Assembly (NCBI GenBank): GCA_016213925.1
Contig: JACQZH010000021.1
Span: 6,295-70,294, forward strand
DNA: 64,000 nucleotides
Source of the DNA: Candidatus Omnitrophota bacterium
GTDB lineage: Bacteria > Omnitrophota > Gorgyraeia > B26-G9
Direction: 5' to 3'
Made by a program: the position numbers and the translations under genes. Shown one piece after another: positions 6,231 to 55,549 of this stretch (positions are counted from its first letter, which is position 1; every line of letters starts with the position of its first letter). A model generated the notes under the pieces. That model made no database searches. It was not told the origin of the DNA and saw only the letters and a program-made list of their open reading frames with translations.

Positions 6231-6614
6231 ATGCATATTATAAGCGGAGAATTAAAGGGTAGAACCTTAAAACAGCCTAAAGATAAAAATGTCCGTCCGA
6301 CACGCGAACTAGTTAGAAAAGCGGTTTTTGATGTGTTGGGGGAGTTTATTTTAGACAAGGAGGTTCTTGACTTATTCAGCGGCAGCGGTGCTTTTGGATT
6401 TGAAGCATTAAGTTGCGGGGCAAAGAGCGTTACTTTTGTTGAAAAAAATTTTTTATGCCAGAAGGTTATTAAGGAAAATATGGATTTGTGCGGGGTACAG
6501 GACAGGTGCGCTTTGATCGAAAGAGATGTTTTTCAATCATTACCGCTGCTGGAAAAAAGAAAACAATTGTTCGGAATCGTCTTTGCGGATCCTCCATACT
6601 CCGGGGACATTTGA
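6231..6614 (+). CDS. rsmD: 16S rRNA m2G966 methyltransferase RsmD, C-terminally truncated
   Basis: The SAM motif LDLFSGSGAFGFEALSCGA and the catalytic ADPPY are present, but the ORF stops 4 codons after DPPY. It is 127 aa versus ~185 typical. Confidence 0.6.
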   Translation: MHIISGELKGRTLKQPKDKNVRPTRELVRKAVFDVLGEFILDKEVLDLFSGSGAFGFEALSCGAKSVTFVEKNFLCQKVIKENMDLCGVQDRCALIERDVFQSLPLLEKRKQLFGIVFADPPYSGDI

Positions 6615-7059
6615 CCCGATAACCTACGGACATATTGATATTATCAAGCGCGCGTCCAGAGTTTTTGATGAAGTGATTATTGCTGTCGGTGAAAATTTAC
6701 TAAAAGAACCTCTTTTTACCGTCGAAGAGCGGGTGGAGATGATTAAACGCGTAACCCAAGGGTTGAAGAACATTAAAGTGGATAGTTTTAACGAATTGAT
6801 GGTAAATTATGTGCAAAGAAAGAAAATTAATATTGTTATCAGGGGATTGCGGATGATTTCTGATTTTGAATATGAGTTTCAGATGGCATTAACAAATAGA
6901 AAACTTAATCCAAATATAGAAATAATTTTTCTTATGCCGAATGAAGCATATTCTTTTTTATCTAGTAAACTTATAAAGGAAATTGCGTTACTCGGAGCTG
7001 ATCTTTCGGAATTTGTTCCGTCTTATGTTGCAGAAAAACTTAAACGGAAATTGAAATAA
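6583..7059 (+). CDS. coaD: Phosphopantetheine adenylyltransferase CoaD
   Basis: PGTFDPITYGHIDII...RGLR..SDFEYEFQMALTNR align along the whole length with CoaD. The start is assigned to TTG at 6583 (MRILHTPGTFDP), which mirrors the E. coli N-terminus. Confidence 0.8.
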   Translation: MRILHTPGTFDPITYGHIDIIKRASRVFDEVIIAVGENLLKEPLFTVEERVEMIKRVTQGLKNIKVDSFNELMVNYVQRKKINIVIRGLRMISDFEYEFQMALTNRKLNPNIEIIFLMPNEAYSFLSSKLIKEIALLGADLSEFVPSYVAEKLKRKLK

Positions 7060-22734: not shown

Positions 22735-25700
22735 ATGTATTTTAAAAAGTTAGAACTCTACGGATTTAAATCTTTTGTAGATAAGACAACGCTTATTTTT
22801 GAACCAGGCGTTACTGCCATTGTCGGGCCTAACGGTACAGGCAAAAGCAATATTTCAGACGCGATAAAATGGGTGCTTGGCGAACAAAGCGCGAAATCAA
22901 TGCGCGGTTCAAAAATGGAGGACGTGATTTTTAACGGTACTGAAGCACGGCCTCCGGTGAATATGGCGGAAGTTTCGCTTATCCTTTCCAATGAAGAAAA
23001 ACGTTTAGCGATTGATTATGATGAAGTAACAATTACCCGCAGGCTTTACCGTTCCGGTGAAAGCGAATATCTTTTGAATAAAACCTTGGTGAGGCTTAAA
23101 GATATTCAGGAACTTCTTATGGGTACGGGAATAGGAACGGAGTCATATTCTCTCTTAGAACAAGGCCGCATTGACGCGATTTTAAGTTCAAAGCCCGAAG
23201 AACGCAGGGTTGTTTTTGAAGAAGCAAGCGGGATCACCCGTTTTAAAAAGAAAAAAGCGGAAGCGCTTAGAAGGCTGGAAGCTACAGAAGAAAATTTACT
23301 GCGCGTTAATGATATAATTACCGAAGTTAACCGCCAATTAGGATCGATCCAGCGCCAGGTAAATAAAGCCAGGCGTTATCAGGAACATTATGAGCAGCTT
23401 AAAATCCTCGATACGCAATATACCTACCGCGAATATAATGTCGTAAAAACAGAAAAAGAAAAATTTGAAGAGTGTGAAAATGCTTTTCGCAATGAATTGA
23501 ATTCCCTGGAGTCAGAACTTGCCGGATTGGCTCAAGCGTTTGACGAAATAAAAAGCGCTCTTTCTAAGGTTGAAGGGGATTATAGCCAGCTTAATGCCAA
23601 GGTTTTAAATGCCAGTACTCAAATCGAAAAAAATACAGACCGGATTCATTTGAATAATGAACGCATAGAGGAATTTGGCCAGCGCGCGGAAAATTTGACC
23701 GCGGATATTGATAATTCTAATGCTAAAATCAAAGAACTGGAAGAGCAATTTGCGCAGTTAAAAATCCGCTTGAATTCATTCCTTGAAGAAAAAAATAATA
23801 AGGTCCACAATTTAAATCTTAAACAAGCGAGTATTTGCGAGATTGAAAAGCTGATTAAGCAAATACATGAATCGATTGAATCAACCCGGCTGACGGCGGT
23901 AAAGCTTCTTTCCGAGCACGCGCAGATTAAAAATGAACTGGCAAAACTTTCCGCTAATATTCATAACGCGCATTCACGCCTGCTTCGGTTGCATCAGGAA
24001 AAAGAAAAGACGGAAAATGAGCTTTCGGCAATTAATGCCAAGATAGAAGAAAAAATGTCGCTTCTGGATGAGCTTAAGGGCAGGATAGATACGGAGGAAC
24101 TGCAGGTTAGTCAATTACGTTCTGATTATGATGCTTTAAATCAGGAGATCCGCAACCTGGAATCAGAGTATCAAAAAAGCAAGCAGTCTTTGATAGCCGG
24201 CCAGTCACAGCTTGAAGTGCTTGAAAAATTGATTAAAACATACGAAGGTTTTTCAAGTAACGTGAAAAATTTTATGCTTAAAAAAGAAACTCATCCGCAT
24301 CTTTTCGAGGGAGTTTATGATGTTCTTGTAAATCTGATTGATGTTACCCCAGGATTTGAAATGTGCGTAGAAAATGCGCTGGGGGAATATTTGCAGGCAG
24401 TTGTCGTTGATAATAAACAAACCGCGTATAAGCTGACAAATTTTTTAAAAGAGGAGCAGATAGGGCGGATAAGATTTATCGCGCTAGATTCTATTCCTTT
24501 GGGCCAAGAAACTATCATGCCTCAAATTGCAGAGAGAAGAATCACGGATGTTATTAAGCCGCAATTTGGTTATGAAAAGCTTATAAATTATCTTTTACGG
24601 GATACTTTTATTATCGGGGAAAAAAATCAAAACACGGAGAAAACAATTCCTGCGCAAGAAAATACCGGCTGTGAAAGTTTAACGCAATCCCTTAGCCAGG
24701 TAAAAGAAGGTAGAATGTTTTCTTATACGATAGCAAATGCCGAATCAGTGGAAGTTATTGGAGATTTTAATAATTGGGTAAGCAGCCTTAAAAGCAGGAT
24801 GGAACGGGCGCAGGCGGGAAATTGGCAAAAATTTATAGCTCTTAACCCGGGGGTTTACAGGTATAAGTTTATCGTAGATGGAAGATGGGTGCTTGATCCG
24901 GCTAATCCGCGTTCGCAGATAGACGATACAGGGAACGTGAATTCAGTAATTGAAGTGCTTGAATATCCGGTTCAGGCCAAGCCTCAAAGCATGATTTCCG
25001 ATTCTCAGGGGGATGCGGATTTCTCAGGCAGATTAATATCTCAAGATGGTCAAATCGATACATTGACTGAAGTTATCAGCAGCCCTGTCAAAGAGCATGG
25101 CGCCGGGTTGATATTGCAGAAAACCCAGATGAAGATGCTTCAGGAAGAATGCGTGTGTTTAAAAGAAGCGATTAAGTACTATGAAGCTAAGGAGCAGGAA
25201 AAACGGCAGCAGCTTGTCGGGATGGAACGTGAATTGACTCAACTTAATGATATTTTGCATAAAGAGAAAATCGTATTTGCAAATAAGGATTCAGAGCGTT
25301 CAAATATTGAAGCGGCAAAGAAGAAACTTGATGATGAAATAGCTATACTGAACCTGGAAATAGATGAAACAACGCTTGACGAGCAGGAACTGATGGCAAA
25401 AGAAATCGAAAAGAAGAAACGGCTTGAAGAAATAGATGAGCTGACAAGAGTCAATGAAAAGAAAATGGCCCAAGGCCAGGAGCTGATAGCTATAAAGACT
25501 CAAGAACGTGAAGAGCTGCTTGTTGTTATCGCCGAAATGAAGACGGAATTTTCTCTTTTAAATGAACAGGAAGCTGCCCTGAACACTAATTTTTCCATGC
25601 TCGATCAAAGCATTGAAAGTCAGCGGGCTAACGCGAAAGAATATTTAAGGCAGAAAGAAGATTTATTAAAGCGCAGTGAAGAGCTTTCTATTCAAAAAGA

Positions 25701-26745
25701 AGAGCTAAAACAGAAAACAACGGTTCTCGAAACTGAAAAACAGCAGATGGAGGAGGCATTACAGGGAATTTCCTTGCAGCGCGGTAAATTACTTGCTGAA
25801 TTTGAGGATGTCCAGAATCAGGTAAAAATAAAAGAAAACAGGATTAATGCTATAAAAAATAACATGCGCGATGTTGATATTAAGAAGGTAGAACTTAATT
25901 TTAAAATAGAATCACTGGTTAATTCGCTTAAACAAGCGTATAAGATTGATTTGCTTACGCTTACCTTGGAGCCTTCTGAAGGGGTTGACTGGAATAGCCA
26001 AAAACTGCAGATCGAGGAATTGAAAATAAAAGTTGAGCGGCTTGGCGCGGTTAATCTTGCCGCGGTCGAAGAAGAGGAAGAACTTAAGGAGAGAGCGGAA
26101 TTTCTTAACAGTCAAAAAGATGATTTAATATCGGCAAAGCAATCCCTGATGCAGGCAATCCAAAAAATAAACCGCACGACAAAAGAGTTATTCCTTGAAA
26201 CGTTTGAAAAGTCAAAAGCGACTTTTAAAGAATATTTTAAACTGCTTTTCGGAGGAGGAGATGCGCAGCTGCATCTTATCGAAGATAAGGATATCTTGGA
26301 AAGCGGTATCGATATTATAGTACGGCCTCCGGGAAAACGCCTGCAGAGTATTACATTGCTTTCAGGAGGGGAAAAAACACTTACGGCTATCGCGCTATTA
26401 TTCGCGATTTATAAAATAAAGCCTACGCCGTTCTGCGTGTTAGATGAAATGGATGCGCCGCTTGATGAATCGAATATTGACCGTTTTACCCGGGTACTGC
26501 AGGAGTTTCTCAAGGATTCGCAGTTTATCATTATTACTCATAATAAAAAGACAATCGGTATGGCTGACGTGATGTATGGAGTAACAATGGAAGAGGCGGG
26601 TATTTCCAAAATCGTATCAGTGAAATTCAGCGATTATAAAGAAAATTCCCAGGATAATTCCCAAGGTCTGGGTTACGAGCAAACGCCTCAAAAAGGTTTT
26701 GCAGAGACTGAAGTAACAATGCCGGAGAAGGTACTGGCGCATTGA
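22735..26745 (+). CDS. smc: Chromosome segregation protein SMC with ~150-aa CBM48-like insertion in hinge
   Basis: The N-terminal Walker A is GPNGTGKSN and the C-terminal signature is LSGGEKTLTAIALLFAI with Walker B CVLDEMDAPLD, joined by long coiled coils. 1336 aa versus ~1180 typical. Confidence 0.85.
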   Translation: MYFKKLELYGFKSFVDKTTLIFEPGVTAIVGPNGTGKSNISDAIKWVLGEQSAKSMRGSKMEDVIFNGTEARPPVNMAEVSLILSNEEKRLAIDYDEVTITRRLYRSGESEYLLNKTLVRLKDIQELLMGTGIGTESYSLLEQGRIDAILSSKPEERRVVFEEASGITRFKKKKAEALRRLEATEENLLRVNDIITEVNRQLGSIQRQVNKARRYQEHYEQLKILDTQYTYREYNVVKTEKEKFEECENAFRNELNSLESELAGLAQAFDEIKSALSKVEGDYSQLNAKVLNASTQIEKNTDRIHLNNERIEEFGQRAENLTADIDNSNAKIKELEEQFAQLKIRLNSFLEEKNNKVHNLNLKQASICEIEKLIKQIHESIESTRLTAVKLLSEHAQIKNELAKLSANIHNAHSRLLRLHQEKEKTENELSAINAKIEEKMSLLDELKGRIDTEELQVSQLRSDYDALNQEIRNLESEYQKSKQSLIAGQSQLEVLEKLIKTYEGFSSNVKNFMLKKETHPHLFEGVYDVLVNLIDVTPGFEMCVENALGEYLQAVVVDNKQTAYKLTNFLKEEQIGRIRFIALDSIPLGQETIMPQIAERRITDVIKPQFGYEKLINYLLRDTFIIGEKNQNTEKTIPAQENTGCESLTQSLSQVKEGRMFSYTIANAESVEVIGDFNNWVSSLKSRMERAQAGNWQKFIALNPGVYRYKFIVDGRWVLDPANPRSQIDDTGNVNSVIEVLEYPVQAKPQSMISDSQGDADFSGRLISQDGQIDTLTEVISSPVKEHGAGLILQKTQMKMLQEECVCLKEAIKYYEAKEQEKRQQLVGMERELTQLNDILHKEKIVFANKDSERSNIEAAKKKLDDEIAILNLEIDETTLDEQELMAKEIEKKKRLEEIDELTRVNEKKMAQGQELIAIKTQEREELLVVIAEMKTEFSLLNEQEAALNTNFSMLDQSIESQRANAKEYLRQKEDLLKRSEELSIQKEELKQKTTVLETEKQQMEEALQGISLQRGKLLAEFEDVQNQVKIKENRINAIKNNMRDVDIKKVELNFKIESLVNSLKQAYKIDLLTLTLEPSEGVDWNSQKLQIEELKIKVERLGAVNLAAVEEEEELKERAEFLNSQKDDLISAKQSLMQAIQKINRTTKELFLETFEKSKATFKEYFKLLFGGGDAQLHLIEDKDILESGIDIIVRPPGKRLQSITLLSGGEKTLTAIALLFAIYKIKPTPFCVLDEMDAPLDESNIDRFTRVLQEFLKDSQFIIITHNKKTIGMADVMYGVTMEEAGISKIVSVKFSDYKENSQDNSQGLGYEQTPQKGFAETEVTMPEKVLAH

Positions 26746-27009: not shown

Positions 27010-28119
27010 TTAAATTAATTCTTTGCTGAACATGCAGACTCTGTTGCGGCCGATATTCTTTGCCGCGTAAAGGGCTTTATCAGCGGCAGAAATAAGGCCT
27101 TCGGCAGTTGAAGAATCTTGCGGGAAGCTTGAGACGCCGATGCTTATTGTCGCGTGTTTTGGCGTGTCCGATTCGGGTGTTTGAAACGGAAAGGCTGCCG
27201 CGAAGCTGCGGATTCTTTCTGCGGAAGAGTAGGCTTTTTCCTTAAAGGTTTCAGGAAGGATAATTACGAATTCTTCTCCTCCGTATCGGGCGACAAGATC
27301 TACCTCCCTGCTTGAATTTTGAAAAATTTCCGCTAATTGCTTCAGGAGTTTATCTCCTGCAGGATGGCCGTATGTATCATTGAATTTTTTGAAAAAATCT
27401 ATGTCAATCATAAGCAGGCTTAACTGCCGGTTAAAGCGGCTTGCACGCTTTATTTCTTCGCGCAGCTGATGCTGAAAATATCCGTAATTCCAGAGATTTG
27501 TCAGGTGGTCAGTGTATGAAAGGATCAGGGTTTTTTCAAATTCCTGCGAATTTTCTATTGCTAATCCGGCCTGGTTTGCGAACATGGTAAGTTTCCAGAT
27601 ATCAGATTCGGTAATCTTATTTTTTGAAAAAAAGTTATCAACAAGCATGATACCGACAACACGGTTTTTTGCCAGCAAAGGCACGGTTACAAAATATTCC
27701 ATATTGAATAATGAGATTACCGGGTCGTTGCTTGAAAGCAATTTCTTGGAATCAGTTCTGCGGTCAAAATCCGCGTATGAGGATATGAGTTGATCCATGG
27801 TTTTTTGTGTGTTTTCAATATATTTCCAGATTTCATGAGCATTTTCTCCGGAATCTGGGCCGATTCCCATTCTCCCTTCAAGCTGGTTTTTCTTTTCGTT
27901 TACAAGAAATAACATGGCGCGGTTAAAACCAAGCCCTTCATTGGCTGTAACGCTGGTAAGGATGATGTATAAGATTTCGTCCAGGCGCAAAGTAGAGCGC
28001 ATGGCAATGCCTATCTCATAGAGCATTAGCAGCTCAGAGTGCTGTTTTTCATCAGGTGTGTGTACTTTATTTTGGTGGAGCATGCTTCTTATTTTTAAAC
28101 ACTTTCCTATTTTTGTCAA
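27010..28119 (-). CDS. GAF-domain diguanylate cyclase (GGDEF)
   Basis: The C-terminus carries RYGGEEFVIILPE (GGEEF active site). The N-terminal ~180 aa are GAF-like. Confidence 0.75.
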   Translation of the reverse strand: MTKIGKCLKIRSMLHQNKVHTPDEKQHSELLMLYEIGIAMRSTLRLDEILYIILTSVTANEGLGFNRAMLFLVNEKKNQLEGRMGIGPDSGENAHEIWKYIENTQKTMDQLISSYADFDRRTDSKKLLSSNDPVISLFNMEYFVTVPLLAKNRVVGIMLVDNFFSKNKITESDIWKLTMFANQAGLAIENSQEFEKTLILSYTDHLTNLWNYGYFQHQLREEIKRASRFNRQLSLLMIDIDFFKKFNDTYGHPAGDKLLKQLAEIFQNSSREVDLVARYGGEEFVIILPETFKEKAYSSAERIRSFAAAFPFQTPESDTPKHATISIGVSSFPQDSSTAEGLISAADKALYAAKNIGRNRVCMFSKELI

Positions 28120-45791: not shown

Positions 45792-47450
45792 CTATTCCGA
45801 TAATTTAACGATAACCCCTTTTAGCCGTGCCTGATTCAAAAAGTATTTTAAAAAAATTATCTCGACGAAGAGATATAATCCCGTAAGCGCAAATCCTTTT
45901 AAAAGAATAAACGGCCCTGAAGGAGCAAAGCCGAAATAAGAACGCAGGTATTCAAGAAAATATGTAAGCGGTATGAACTGTGAAACGCGGTGCCAGAAAA
46001 CAGGCAGTGTTTCTACGGGATAATATATGCCGCAAATAAGCATTAAAAGATAGGCAAGCATCCAGGCAGTGTTTTCTGCCTTGTTGCCAAAGGCAAGGAC
46101 CAGCATATTTACGATTGTTCCGGCTATAAGCGCGGTTAAAAAAATTCCCATTAAAAAAAGCGAAGTCGGGATGATTCCCGGGAAACTTACCCCAAACATC
46201 AAATAGGCGGCAATGGCCAGCACTGAAAAAATAATTAAGCCTCTGACTATTCCGATGATCCAGGAGCCGCATAATGATTCGATGGGGCCGGCAGGAGTAA
46301 GCATAGTATGTTTTAAGCTTTTTGACCAAATTTCATAAAGAATATTATAAGAGACATCAAGCTGTGTTAACTGCAGGATGCCTCCGGTTATGGCGCCGGT
46401 CATGATGAATGCAAGAGCTTTATGTTCAAGCGAAAGAAAATTTCCCATTAATCCGATTGAAATAAGCGTTACCATCGGCCAGAACAGCAATTCCGCAAAA
46501 GAAAAAAAGTTCCGTTTGGCAAAAATAAAATTCCGGTATGTGAAGGCGCTGGCGCGGTTTATCCAGGCAAATAAACGGTGATGTTCTGCAAGCTTATTTT
46601 TTATCTCTGCTTTGGTAGTTTCCGCGGATTGCAGGCAAAGAGCTTCTGTTTTTATCGGTTGCTGGCTGAAGTCATATTCATGATCGCGGGCAAGGCTGAT
46701 AAAGACTTCGTCTAAAGTATCTTTTTGATGCATTTGTTTTAATTGTCCAGGGCTTGCAATTCTGATTACCCTTCCTTGTTTTAAAAACACAATGCGCTGG
46801 CACATTAGTTCCGCTTCTTTCATATTATGGGTAGTTAGCAGGATCGTGATATGTTTTTCTTTCCAGATATCCAGGATCATCCGGCGGGTGTTTACTGCTA
46901 CATCAGGGTCAAGCCCGATTGTAGGCTCGTCGAGAAAAAGAATTTTCGGGTTATTGAGTAAAGCTTTTGCCAGGGCCATCCTTTGTTTTGTGCCACTGGA
47001 AAGCTCGTCAAAACACTGGTTTTGGTATGGTTTTAATTGTAAGAGCTCAATCACTTCATCTTTTTTGCTTTTCAATTTTGCCCCGGATAATCCGTAAAGC
47101 TTTGCGTAAAAGCTCAGGTTTTCTTCTACTGTTAAACTCCATGCAAAGTTCGGGTATCCAGAAGCCATATTCATTATCATTCGCATATATTGGGTGCAGG
47201 ATCTTTCGCAAAGCAGGCCGTTGACGTAAATTTGACCGGTATCCTGTATAAGCAGGGTTGAAAGAATATTAAGCAGTGTTGTTTTCCCTGCGCCGTTGGG
47301 CCCGAGGATACCGAGTATTTCTTGGCTTAAGACATCAAAAGAAACGCCATCTAATGCTCTAATAAATTTGCCTTTTGATTTGCTGTGGAATGTTTTTGAA
47401 ATGTTTTTTATGCTGATAATCGCCATAATCGCCTTATTATATGATAACAA
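45792..47450 (-). CDS. ABC transporter, fused ATP-binding and ABC-2 permease domains
   Basis: The N-terminus has GPNGAGKTT (Walker A), LSSGTKQRMALA (signature) and ILFLDEPT (Walker B). The C-terminal ~250 aa have six TM helices. An alternative ATG start is at 47426. Confidence 0.7.
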   Translation of the reverse strand: MLSYNKAIMAIISIKNISKTFHSKSKGKFIRALDGVSFDVLSQEILGILGPNGAGKTTLLNILSTLLIQDTGQIYVNGLLCERSCTQYMRMIMNMASGYPNFAWSLTVEENLSFYAKLYGLSGAKLKSKKDEVIELLQLKPYQNQCFDELSSGTKQRMALAKALLNNPKILFLDEPTIGLDPDVAVNTRRMILDIWKEKHITILLTTHNMKEAELMCQRIVFLKQGRVIRIASPGQLKQMHQKDTLDEVFISLARDHEYDFSQQPIKTEALCLQSAETTKAEIKNKLAEHHRLFAWINRASAFTYRNFIFAKRNFFSFAELLFWPMVTLISIGLMGNFLSLEHKALAFIMTGAITGGILQLTQLDVSYNILYEIWSKSLKHTMLTPAGPIESLCGSWIIGIVRGLIIFSVLAIAAYLMFGVSFPGIIPTSLFLMGIFLTALIAGTIVNMLVLAFGNKAENTAWMLAYLLMLICGIYYPVETLPVFWHRVSQFIPLTYFLEYLRSYFGFAPSGPFILLKGFALTGLYLFVEIIFLKYFLNQARLKGVIVKLSE

Positions 47451-54442: not shown

Positions 54443-55549
54443 TTATGTTTTAAGGTTTTCTTTTAAGTGTTCGCTAATCTTTAAAAATACTTCTTCCGGA
54501 GTGATCGCGCTAAGGCATTCACGTTTAATTGCCCGGCTGCATTTGAACCGGCATGGTGAACAAGCCAGATTTTTGTAAAAAACCATGCTGTTTTTCCCTA
54601 TAGGAGAAAATTTGCGCGGCGTGGTCGGCCCGAAAATAGCCGCGCTTAAACTTCCCAGGCAGCTGGCTAAATGCAAACTTCCGCTGTCATTGCCGATAAT
54701 GGCTTTGCAGTGCTTCAGGATAGCTGCTTCGTCGAGGATTTCTGTGGCCGAATCTTTATCTATTTCCAAAGGGATAATTGAGGATGATTGCATTTTTTTG
54801 GAAACTATTCTTAATAGATCAATATCTTTCGGGCTTCCCAAAAGCAATATGCGGTATCCTTTTTTAGCGAATAAATCGCCTAATTTCGCGAAATGTTCAG
54901 GCATCCAGTTTTTAAAATCCATGCCGCAGCCGGGGAACATGGCAATAAATTTACTATTGGGGAAACTAGACAGAAATTTTTCCGTCTTTTCTTGAGATGT
55001 TTTAGGCAAAGAAAGCTGTATGCTGTTTAAGTCAAAATCCTGGATTCCCAGGCGTGCCGGCAGGGTTATCAATTGTTCAAGAATATGCATTTTTTTATAC
55101 TCAAGGCCAGGCATCGGCCAGTCGGAAAGAAAGAAGCTTGCGCTTAGCATATATTTAGGGTTAAGGCAGCGCAGCCAGAAGCTTGTTTCCCAGCGGCGCT
55201 GTGTATCAATTAGAAGATCGATTTTCCCTTTCCAGAGTTTTCTGAAATTCAGGAATTTCCTGATGCCTTTGCCTTTGTCCGGCCGTTCAAAATGGATATA
55301 TCCGTCTAAATAGGGGATAGCTTTAAAGATTTTTTCAAAACGCGGATAGATTATTCCCATATAATATATTTTTGCATCGGGAAAAGCGTCGCGGATCATT
55401 TTAAAGAAAAGCACGCCGACAGCCAGGTCGCCTAATCCGCCGCCGCCTTTATAGATAGCGATTTCCTTAACCTTATCCCGAAGCTCAAGATACGGCTTTT
55501 GCGCCTTGAATTTCTTAAATTGTTTTATTTGTAAGAACTTAAAGTCCAT
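54443..55549 (-). CDS. Glycosyltransferase family 9 (ADP-heptose:LPS heptosyltransferase-like)
   Basis: AIIGNDSGSLHLASCLG motif and 368 aa. Confidence 0.65.
   Translation of the reverse strand: MDFKFLQIKQFKKFKAQKPYLELRDKVKEIAIYKGGGGLGDLAVGVLFFKMIRDAFPDAKIYYMGIIYPRFEKIFKAIPYLDGYIHFERPDKGKGIRKFLNFRKLWKGKIDLLIDTQRRWETSFWLRCLNPKYMLSASFFLSDWPMPGLEYKKMHILEQLITLPARLGIQDFDLNSIQLSLPKTSQEKTEKFLSSFPNSKFIAMFPGCGMDFKNWMPEHFAKLGDLFAKKGYRILLLGSPKDIDLLRIVSKKMQSSSIIPLEIDKDSATEILDEAAILKHCKAIIGNDSGSLHLASCLGSLSAAIFGPTTPRKFSPIGKNSMVFYKNLACSPCRFKCSRAIKRECLSAITPEEVFLKISEHLKENLKT

Follow-up and report, generated by a model that had tools for sequence, protein, structure and literature searches.

A CBM48/AMPK-beta-type module embedded in the SMC hinge of an Omnitrophota clade and its candidate role in linking glycogen to the nucleoid

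The stretch of DNA analyzed here, 64 kb of contig JACQZH010000021.1 from a Candidatus Omnitrophota bacterium (hereafter the window), encodes a bacterial SMC protein whose hinge domain contains an embedded carbohydrate-binding module (CBM) of the CBM48/AMPK1_CBM family. The explanation that we favor, by a modest measure, is that this SMC binds glycogen through its hinge CBM48 and thereby couples the nucleoid to glycogen bodies. The smc gene (22735..26745, + strand) is an open reading frame (ORF) of 1336 amino acids, identified by TIGR02168, by Pfam SMC_N and by its exact match to the database protein P0121 (NCBI MBI4845584.1, from a Candidatus Omnitrophica bacterium), which is annotated as an 'AAA family ATPase'. 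It scores 970.7 bits against the NCBIfam equivalog model TIGR02168 (SMC_prok_B), for a cut-off of 567.35; the match falls into two stretches, the first of which (residues 2-633, model positions 1-636 of 1181) stops where the insertion starts. SMC_N covers residues 3-1291, and the translation shows a Walker A motif (GPNGTGKS) near the N-terminus and the signature, Walker B and D-loop (LLSGGEKT...VLDEMDAPLD, with LSGGE as the signature) near the C-terminus. All the SMC_prok_B features tested were found, except the hinge glycine motif discussed below. The protein is the bacterial SMC (condensin) ATPase of this organism. Neither ScpA nor ScpB, its kleisin and kite partners, was found within the 64-kb window.

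An initial annotation, made from the sequence alone, had proposed that a CBM48/AMPK-beta-type module was lodged in the SMC hinge, at 24650-25110 (residues 639-792). The two peptide strings it quoted are both present in the ORF, and profile hidden Markov models (HMMs), predicted structure and comparative tests all uphold the proposal. The ORF had been judged about 150 residues longer than usual; the measured excess over CBM-less Omnitrophota SMCs (~1180-1210 residues) is 130-155. Taken with the domain matches given below, the signal far exceeds what chance would produce. We placed the insertion with an alignment of the window SMC, 22 insertion-bearing orthologs, 5 close CBM-less relatives and distant Omnitrophota SMCs. 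It spans ~135 residues (~631-765) inside the second hinge pseudo-repeat, bounded by the strand ending in LLRDTFIIGE (residues 620-629) and by the strand RLISQDG (residues 766-772), a position at which CBM-less SMCs have only a short helix and a loop (for example DLESAFSSIAGREDHV in P0168). The insertion thus replaces only the last helix of the second pseudo-repeat, between TFIIGE and RLISQDG. It had been thought that the CBM stood where the second hinge half should be; that half is instead split, with residues ~599-629 before the module and 766-791 after it. The opposite possibility, that the segment is an ordinary hinge, is rejected by the matches to AMPK1_CBM and CBM_48, by the length of the protein and by the alignment.

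The segments can accordingly be delimited as follows, all on the + strand. Hinge part 1 (24304..24621, residues 524-629) comprises the complete first pseudo-repeat together with the first two strands, the helix and TFIIGE of the second, as indicated by Pfam, AlphaFold, Foldseek and the alignment; the Pfam SMC_hinge match covers residues 524-626 (E-value 4.9e-20, model positions 1-105 of 116). Linker 1 (24625..24702, residues 631-656), of variable length and sequence, is predicted to be disordered, with predicted local distance difference test (pLDDT) values below 50 at model residues 152-177 and gappy alignment columns. The beta-sandwich itself (24709..24957, residues 659-741), defined by Pfam, by superposition on 1z0m and by residue conservation, is followed by linker 2 (24958..25029, residues 742-765), likewise variable, with low-confidence pLDDT values of 54-71 and unconserved columns. 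Hinge part 2 (25030..25107, residues 766-791), delimited by the alignment and the AlphaFold model, contains the strand RLISQDG and the terminal hairpin, after which the coiled coil returns; it aligns with the R[FL][IV]T..GE segment of CBM-less SMCs.

An AlphaFold model of residues 480-840, computed from a 42-sequence alignment (mean pLDDT 88.2), shows the first pseudo-repeat as strand-strand-helix-strand-helix-strand, the hinge flanked by helices at 481-501 and 792-839, and, for hinge part 2 and the coiled coil, strands at model residues 287-302 and a helix from model residue 313. Foldseek matched the hinge part of the model to the hinges of Geobacillus stearothermophilus (5h69) and Thermotoga maritima (1gxl), with E-values around 1e-11 and target-normalized TM-scores (TMt) of 0.72-0.77. 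In the predicted structure, the insertion thus leaves the hinge fold intact and connected to both coiled coils. Assuming that the hinge still dimerizes, the model suggests that an SMC homodimer would display two flexibly tethered CBM48 modules at the end distal to its ATPase heads.

The insert belongs to the CBM48/AMPK1_CBM family by HMM, fold and site residues. Both Pfam families score above their gathering thresholds, AMPK1_CBM (PF16561) over residues 668-743 (E-value 8.3e-16, 58.4 bits for a gathering score of 26.8) and CBM_48 (PF02922) over residues 662-721 (25.7 bits for 22.4). A phmmer search of the PDB aligned residues ~662-774 to AMPK beta-1 (E-value 1e-8) and also retrieved AMPK beta-2, these matches being separate from the hinge matches to 1gxl and 5h69. 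The AlphaFold model shows a seven-stranded beta-sandwich with core pLDDT above 90, hung on the two low-confidence linkers, which superposes on the glycogen-binding domain of AMPK beta-1 (1z0m, chain C) with a root mean square deviation of 1.6 Å over 84 columns, a TMt of 0.90 and 34% identity; 4yef and 4yee gave TMt values of 0.83-0.91, and identity to AMPK beta CBMs is 34-36%.

Residues W100, K126, W133, L146 and N150 of AMPK beta-1 are, in the published numbering, its glucan contacts. The phmmer alignment, with the register set by S108 in 'TRSQNN', maps them to W681, K711, W718, T732 and N736 of the window SMC, and places the codons of the W, K, W and N residues at 24775-24777, 24865-24867, 24886-24888 and 24940-24942 (+ strand), respectively. 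W681, K711 and N736 are kept in 23/23 SMC-CBM48 sequences, as is G733, and W718 is kept in 22 of them. The linkers, on the other hand, are conserved neither in sequence nor in length, and over the segment from the CBM to the coiled coil, orthologs are 33-45% identical to the window SMC. A conserved core held on freely drifting tethers is the pattern expected of a functional ligand-binding module. Compared with the AMPK beta CBM (1Z0M/1Z0N/4YEF), the insert has the same sandwich and the same W100/K126/W133/N150 equivalents; it differs in its host, an SMC ATPase rather than a kinase scaffold, in being internal on two linkers rather than near a terminus, in its unconserved L146 equivalent, and in that its ligand binding is a prediction.

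It could be argued that the sandwich is blind to sugars and serves as a protein-protein (or DNA) contact module at the hinge, with a loader or another nucleoid protein as its partner. CBM48/E-set domains do play such a part in AMPK, where the beta CBM touches the kinase domain, and the equivalents of L146 and T148 both vary among the SMC-CBM48 sequences. However, the four main sugar-contact residues, surface-exposed in AMPK beta-1, are near-invariant (22-23/23) over deep divergence, the closest relatives of the module adjoin glycogen enzymes (see below), and no conserved candidate partner gene lies adjacent to smc. We therefore hold this reading to be improbable.

The insertion recurs in related taxa: SMC_hinge and AMPK1_CBM occur together in 22 other 90%-identity clusters, 50-65% identical. 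An assembly or binning chimera, or a miscalled ORF, is ruled out for practical purposes by this recurrence of the same in-frame architecture, in clusters that stem from NCBI, JGI, ENA and Logan assemblies and from contigs of up to 507 kb. Moreover, hinge sequence resumes on both sides of the insert, and there is no compositional break, with a G+C content of 0.44 for the insert against 0.40 ± 0.022 for 405-nucleotide windows of the gene, and 0.41 against 0.39 at third codon positions. The gene neighborhood is also kept, both upstream (pta-ackA-yceD-rpmF-plsX-fabDG-acpP-fabF, acyl-CoA dehydrogenase and electron-transfer flavoprotein, ETF) and downstream, where a GAF-GGDEF gene lies on the opposite strand. 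Two other searches were less sensitive. For a hinge plus CBM fragment, all matches were Bacteroidota proteins with tandem CBM48s, and the query itself was not recovered. In a search of cluster representatives with residues 596-800, tandem-CBM48 proteins dominated and no SMC-like protein, not even of its own clade, stood among the best 150 matches, probably because CBM-less SMCs serve as the representatives of the 50% clusters.

In a neighbor-joining tree built on the 1147 columns outside the insert, the 23 carriers and five CBM-less SMCs (P0139-P0143) form one Omnitrophota clade with 100% bootstrap support, while monophyly of the carriers alone receives 0%. P0139, which lacks the CBM, groups as sister of the carriers P0125/127-131, again with 100% support; P0140-143 and P0147, a basal carrier, are not well resolved. 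The simplest history that these sequences suggest is one gain of the CBM followed by at least one loss. The P0139 junction, 'EGNSQIEQ', resembles the last CBM strand of its sister group, 'EGIENSVIEV', and could be what a deletion left behind, though so short a match is no more than suggestive. Such a history raises the question of whether the module is simply a tolerated passenger, a CBM48 copy that drifted in from a ParA-CBM48 gene (described below) without gaining a role. In its favor are the loss of the module at least once (P0139) and its absence from four more clade members, and the occurrence of inteins in other Omnitrophota SMCs; SMC hinges are also known to tolerate drastic replacement, as when a Rad50 zinc hook substitutes for the hinge of Bacillus subtilis Smc. 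Yet an intact fold and conserved ligand residues in 23 lineages whose linkers have diverged form a pattern of purifying selection, which makes a passenger quite unlikely. The inteins were seen in P0196 and P0235 (1756-1761 amino acids) and in P0234 (1462 amino acids), from precomputed Pfam matches to PF14890 (Intein_splicing) and PF14528 (LAGLIDADG_3).

The initial annotation had also stated that the glycine-rich motif of the second hinge half was missing, and tied this to the insertion. The motif is indeed gone, but the insertion is not the reason. At the dimer interface, where the glycine motif (GX6GX3GG; ..GG..) would stand, the window SMC reads TLTEVISSP, in which the alignment places EVISSP at residues 779-784 (25069..25086, + strand). 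The GG is replaced by an IS[KR]P-type sequence (pattern S/T-[KRSQC]-[PSC]) in 28/28 clade members, with or without the CBM, whereas the remaining Omnitrophota SMCs in the comparison retain both glycines or at least one of them. Because the five CBM-less clade members show the same change, the motif loss is not due to the insertion, and the sequences imply that the hinge dimer interface was remodeled before it or independently of it. Relative to bacterial Smc (Smc-ScpAB; hinges 1GXL/1GXJ of T. maritima and 5H69 of G. stearothermophilus), the window SMC therefore shares the Walker A/B motifs, the signature, the coiled-coil arms and the hinge of two pseudo-repeats, and departs from it by the ~135-residue CBM48 insertion in place of the last helix of the second pseudo-repeat and by this IS[KR]P-type sequence in place of the C-terminal glycine motif.

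The remodeled interface bears on another way of reading the module, as a glycogen sensor. By analogy with the sensing role suggested for the AMPK beta CBM, occupancy would alter the hinge (its opening, its DNA binding or the conformation of the arms) or would sequester SMC on glycogen, so that compaction would be coupled to carbon storage. The same evidence for glycan binding, site residues and fold, applies here; the module sits directly beside the strands of the hinge dimer interface, and the clade has remodeled the glycine motif of that interface. However, long disordered linkers at either end of the module speak against a tight allosteric link to the hinge, the glycine-motif change is also found in members without a CBM, and the parallel fusion of CBM48 to a ParA-like ATPase favors cargo binding. 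On balance, we give the sensor little credence.

The ParA fusion came to light when one genome per GTDB species was scanned with an alignment of SMC-borne CBMs. In addition to generic CBM48 proteins, we found at least 24 loci encoding a ParA/MinD-type ATPase of ~360-390 amino acids with a C-terminal CBM48 (L003:9161-10264, L083:10001-11083, L084:10001-11152 and L085:10001-11107; further loci are L007, L008, L010-L012, L014, L015, L018, L020, L021, L023, L026, L028-L030, L033, L034, L045, L048, L049, L052, L060 and L062). The L003 protein matches Pfam AAA_31/CbiA/ParA and AMPK1_CBM (E-value 3.8e-16), is the best match to the window CBM among the loci listed (52% identity), and is modeled by AlphaFold as a ParA fold, a disordered linker (residues 257-284) and a CBM. 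Used as a query, it returned a best 120 database matches that all share its two-domain architecture (120/120). According to database records, these proteins occur in Omnitrophota, 'Planctomycetia', Glassbacteria, Schekmanbacteria, Desulfobacterales and Latescibacterota. We found no publication on such a fusion in the literature searched. ParA-CBM48 proteins thus form a large, apparently undescribed family, and are candidates for a glycogen-body positioning ATPase.

Several comparisons relate this family to the SMC insert. The CBM of the ParA family (P0241/MFH1062553.1 and at least 120 clusters) is up to 55% identical to SMC-borne CBMs; each SMC CBM has a ParA-borne CBM as its best blastp match outside the SMCs; best scores average 99.6 bits with ParA-borne CBMs, 75.7 with tandem-CBM48 proteins and 81.8 with the other proteins; and 110/120 of the nearest non-SMC neighbors are ParA-borne. 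A tblastn search of the window with ParA-CBM48 found the SMC insert as its sole match (24622-24957, 46% identity over 112 residues). Among the proteins compared, the closest relatives of the SMC module by sequence similarity are the C-terminal CBM48s of ParA-like ATPases. These are likewise carried on a disordered linker, by a host that also works on the nucleoid, and SMC-CBM48 and ParA-CBM48 were found in the same metagenome-assembled genome (MAG) in both cases checked, GCA_043805415.1 (L002/L003) and GCA_024231215.1 (L001/L083). ParA-CBM48 differs from SMC-CBM48 in being a terminal fusion to a ParA/MinD-type ATPase, in its much wider taxonomic spread, and in its proximity to a GH57 branching enzyme.

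This last trait is seen in three Omnitrophota genomes, in which ParA-CBM48 is followed by a ~306-residue and a ~230-residue protein, both of unknown type, then by PgeF (Cu-oxidase_4), a DUF4912 protein and, 4-5 kb from ParA-CBM48, a GH57 1,4-alpha-glucan branching enzyme (L003:10288-16543, L083:11107-16415 and L084:11185-17106). The ~306-residue protein starts with MNKLKKLGKGLEDISYLFLS, a peptide that is also present at residues 42-61 of the L003 DUF4912 protein and resembles the N-terminal LGKGL peptide with which ParB activates ParA. By eye, the sequence of the ~306-residue protein also looks like a MinD/ParA-type core without the Walker A lysine.

How might an SMC make use of such a module? 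Glycogen synthesis is commonly encoded in Omnitrophota MAGs (PMC8542988). In Escherichia coli, glycogen condensates occupy DNA-free space, push the nucleoid off-center and are inherited unequally (PMC12706056), so that there exists a problem for a tether to solve. In the scenario that we slightly favor, the CBM modules would bind cytoplasmic alpha-1,4/1,6-glucan (glycogen), and SMC complexes loaded on the chromosome would anchor glycogen bodies to the nucleoid, or would be drawn to the boundary where glycogen and nucleoid meet. Acting with the ParA-CBM48 system, they could then position glycogen and distribute it along with the chromosomes when the cell divides, rather than leave it to build up in DNA-free poles, and the tether would counter nucleoid displacement and unequal inheritance in small cells. 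A broader proposal, to which we lend only tentative weight, is that Omnitrophota and some neighboring phyla possess a dedicated nucleoid-glycogen coupling system, made of ParA-CBM48 and partners with a ParB-like N-terminal peptide that would place glycogen on the chromosome, to which condensin would have been added in one clade as a second tether, through the hinge copy of the module.

Several points weigh against glycogen coupling by SMC. The partitioning purpose is proposed by analogy, and glycan binding by the hinge module is predicted from site residues and kinship. One of the five contact positions, that of L146, varies among the 23 SMC-CBM48s (T732 in the window), and the W/K/W/N set is also a signature of the family, so that its conservation may be partly structural. 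An exclusive clade of SMC and ParA CBMs received a bootstrap value of only 6% on 86 columns. P0139 marks at least one loss of the module in the clade, so that the module is dispensable in some lineages. Finally, glycogen genes were sought in the 64-kb window and none was found.

In the MAG of the ortholog P0133, a 1642-residue GH77 (4-alpha-glucanotransferase) protein is encoded 6.5 kb upstream of smc (L002:1-3516); it is followed by a 1318-residue Ig_N_CWD1 protein and by the 246-residue/DUF4139 gene pair that also precedes smc in the window.

The proposed logic has parallels. PhaM, for polyhydroxybutyrate granules, and McdAB/ParA, for carboxysomes, achieve nucleoid-based inheritance of cytoplasmic bodies, and by analogy SMC-CBM48 may share the principle that a body attached to, or moved on, the chromosome is passed on to the daughters; the differences are that the cargo here would be a polysaccharide and that the adaptor is built into SMC itself. 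To our knowledge, no system uses condensin as a tether. The plant PTST proteins, which target partners to starch granules, combine a long coiled coil with a CBM48 and thus also localize a protein to an alpha-glucan body. They are unrelated to SMC-CBM48, have neither ATPase nor hinge, and act on plastidial starch rather than bacterial glycogen.

Our literature search found no paper on an SMC with a hinge CBM48; the architecture is therefore undescribed in the literature searched, although the proteins are already public, with machine annotation. SMC hinges are regarded as elements for dimerization and DNA contact, and a hinge displaying a conserved carbohydrate-binding module would newly give condensin a cellular address. 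Were the broader proposal of a dedicated coupling system correct, this would be the first SMC with a hinge domain for a ligand that is neither DNA nor protein, and the system would be the first to partition a polysaccharide storage body actively; we know of no mechanism that controls the position of glycogen condensates. That SMC and a ParA-like ATPase, both of which handle chromosomes, independently bear the same module in the same genomes offers a testable handle on how storage-polymer bodies may be coordinated with chromosome segregation in small cells. The insertion point is also a natural permissive site in the SMC hinge, usable for engineering.

As to the surroundings of smc, a GGDEF diguanylate cyclase gene lies directly 3' of it, in convergent orientation, in all three genomes examined (window 27010-28119, L001:13944-15128 and L002:13990-14655, all on the - strand), and the proteins of the window and L001 also carry a GAF domain. 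Every 2-kb bin of the window has a positive GC skew (0.05-0.27), and the credible genes are almost all on the + strand, the exceptions being 27010-28119, 45792-47450 and 54443-55549, which is consistent with a window that lies in one replichore with a strong leading-strand gene bias. Lastly, an RsmD-like methyltransferase ORF (PF03602, 6231-6614) ends after 127 amino acids (model positions 1-124 of 182), just past its DPPY motif, and overlaps the start region of coaD (6526-7059); it could be a truncated gene or reflect a sequencing frameshift.

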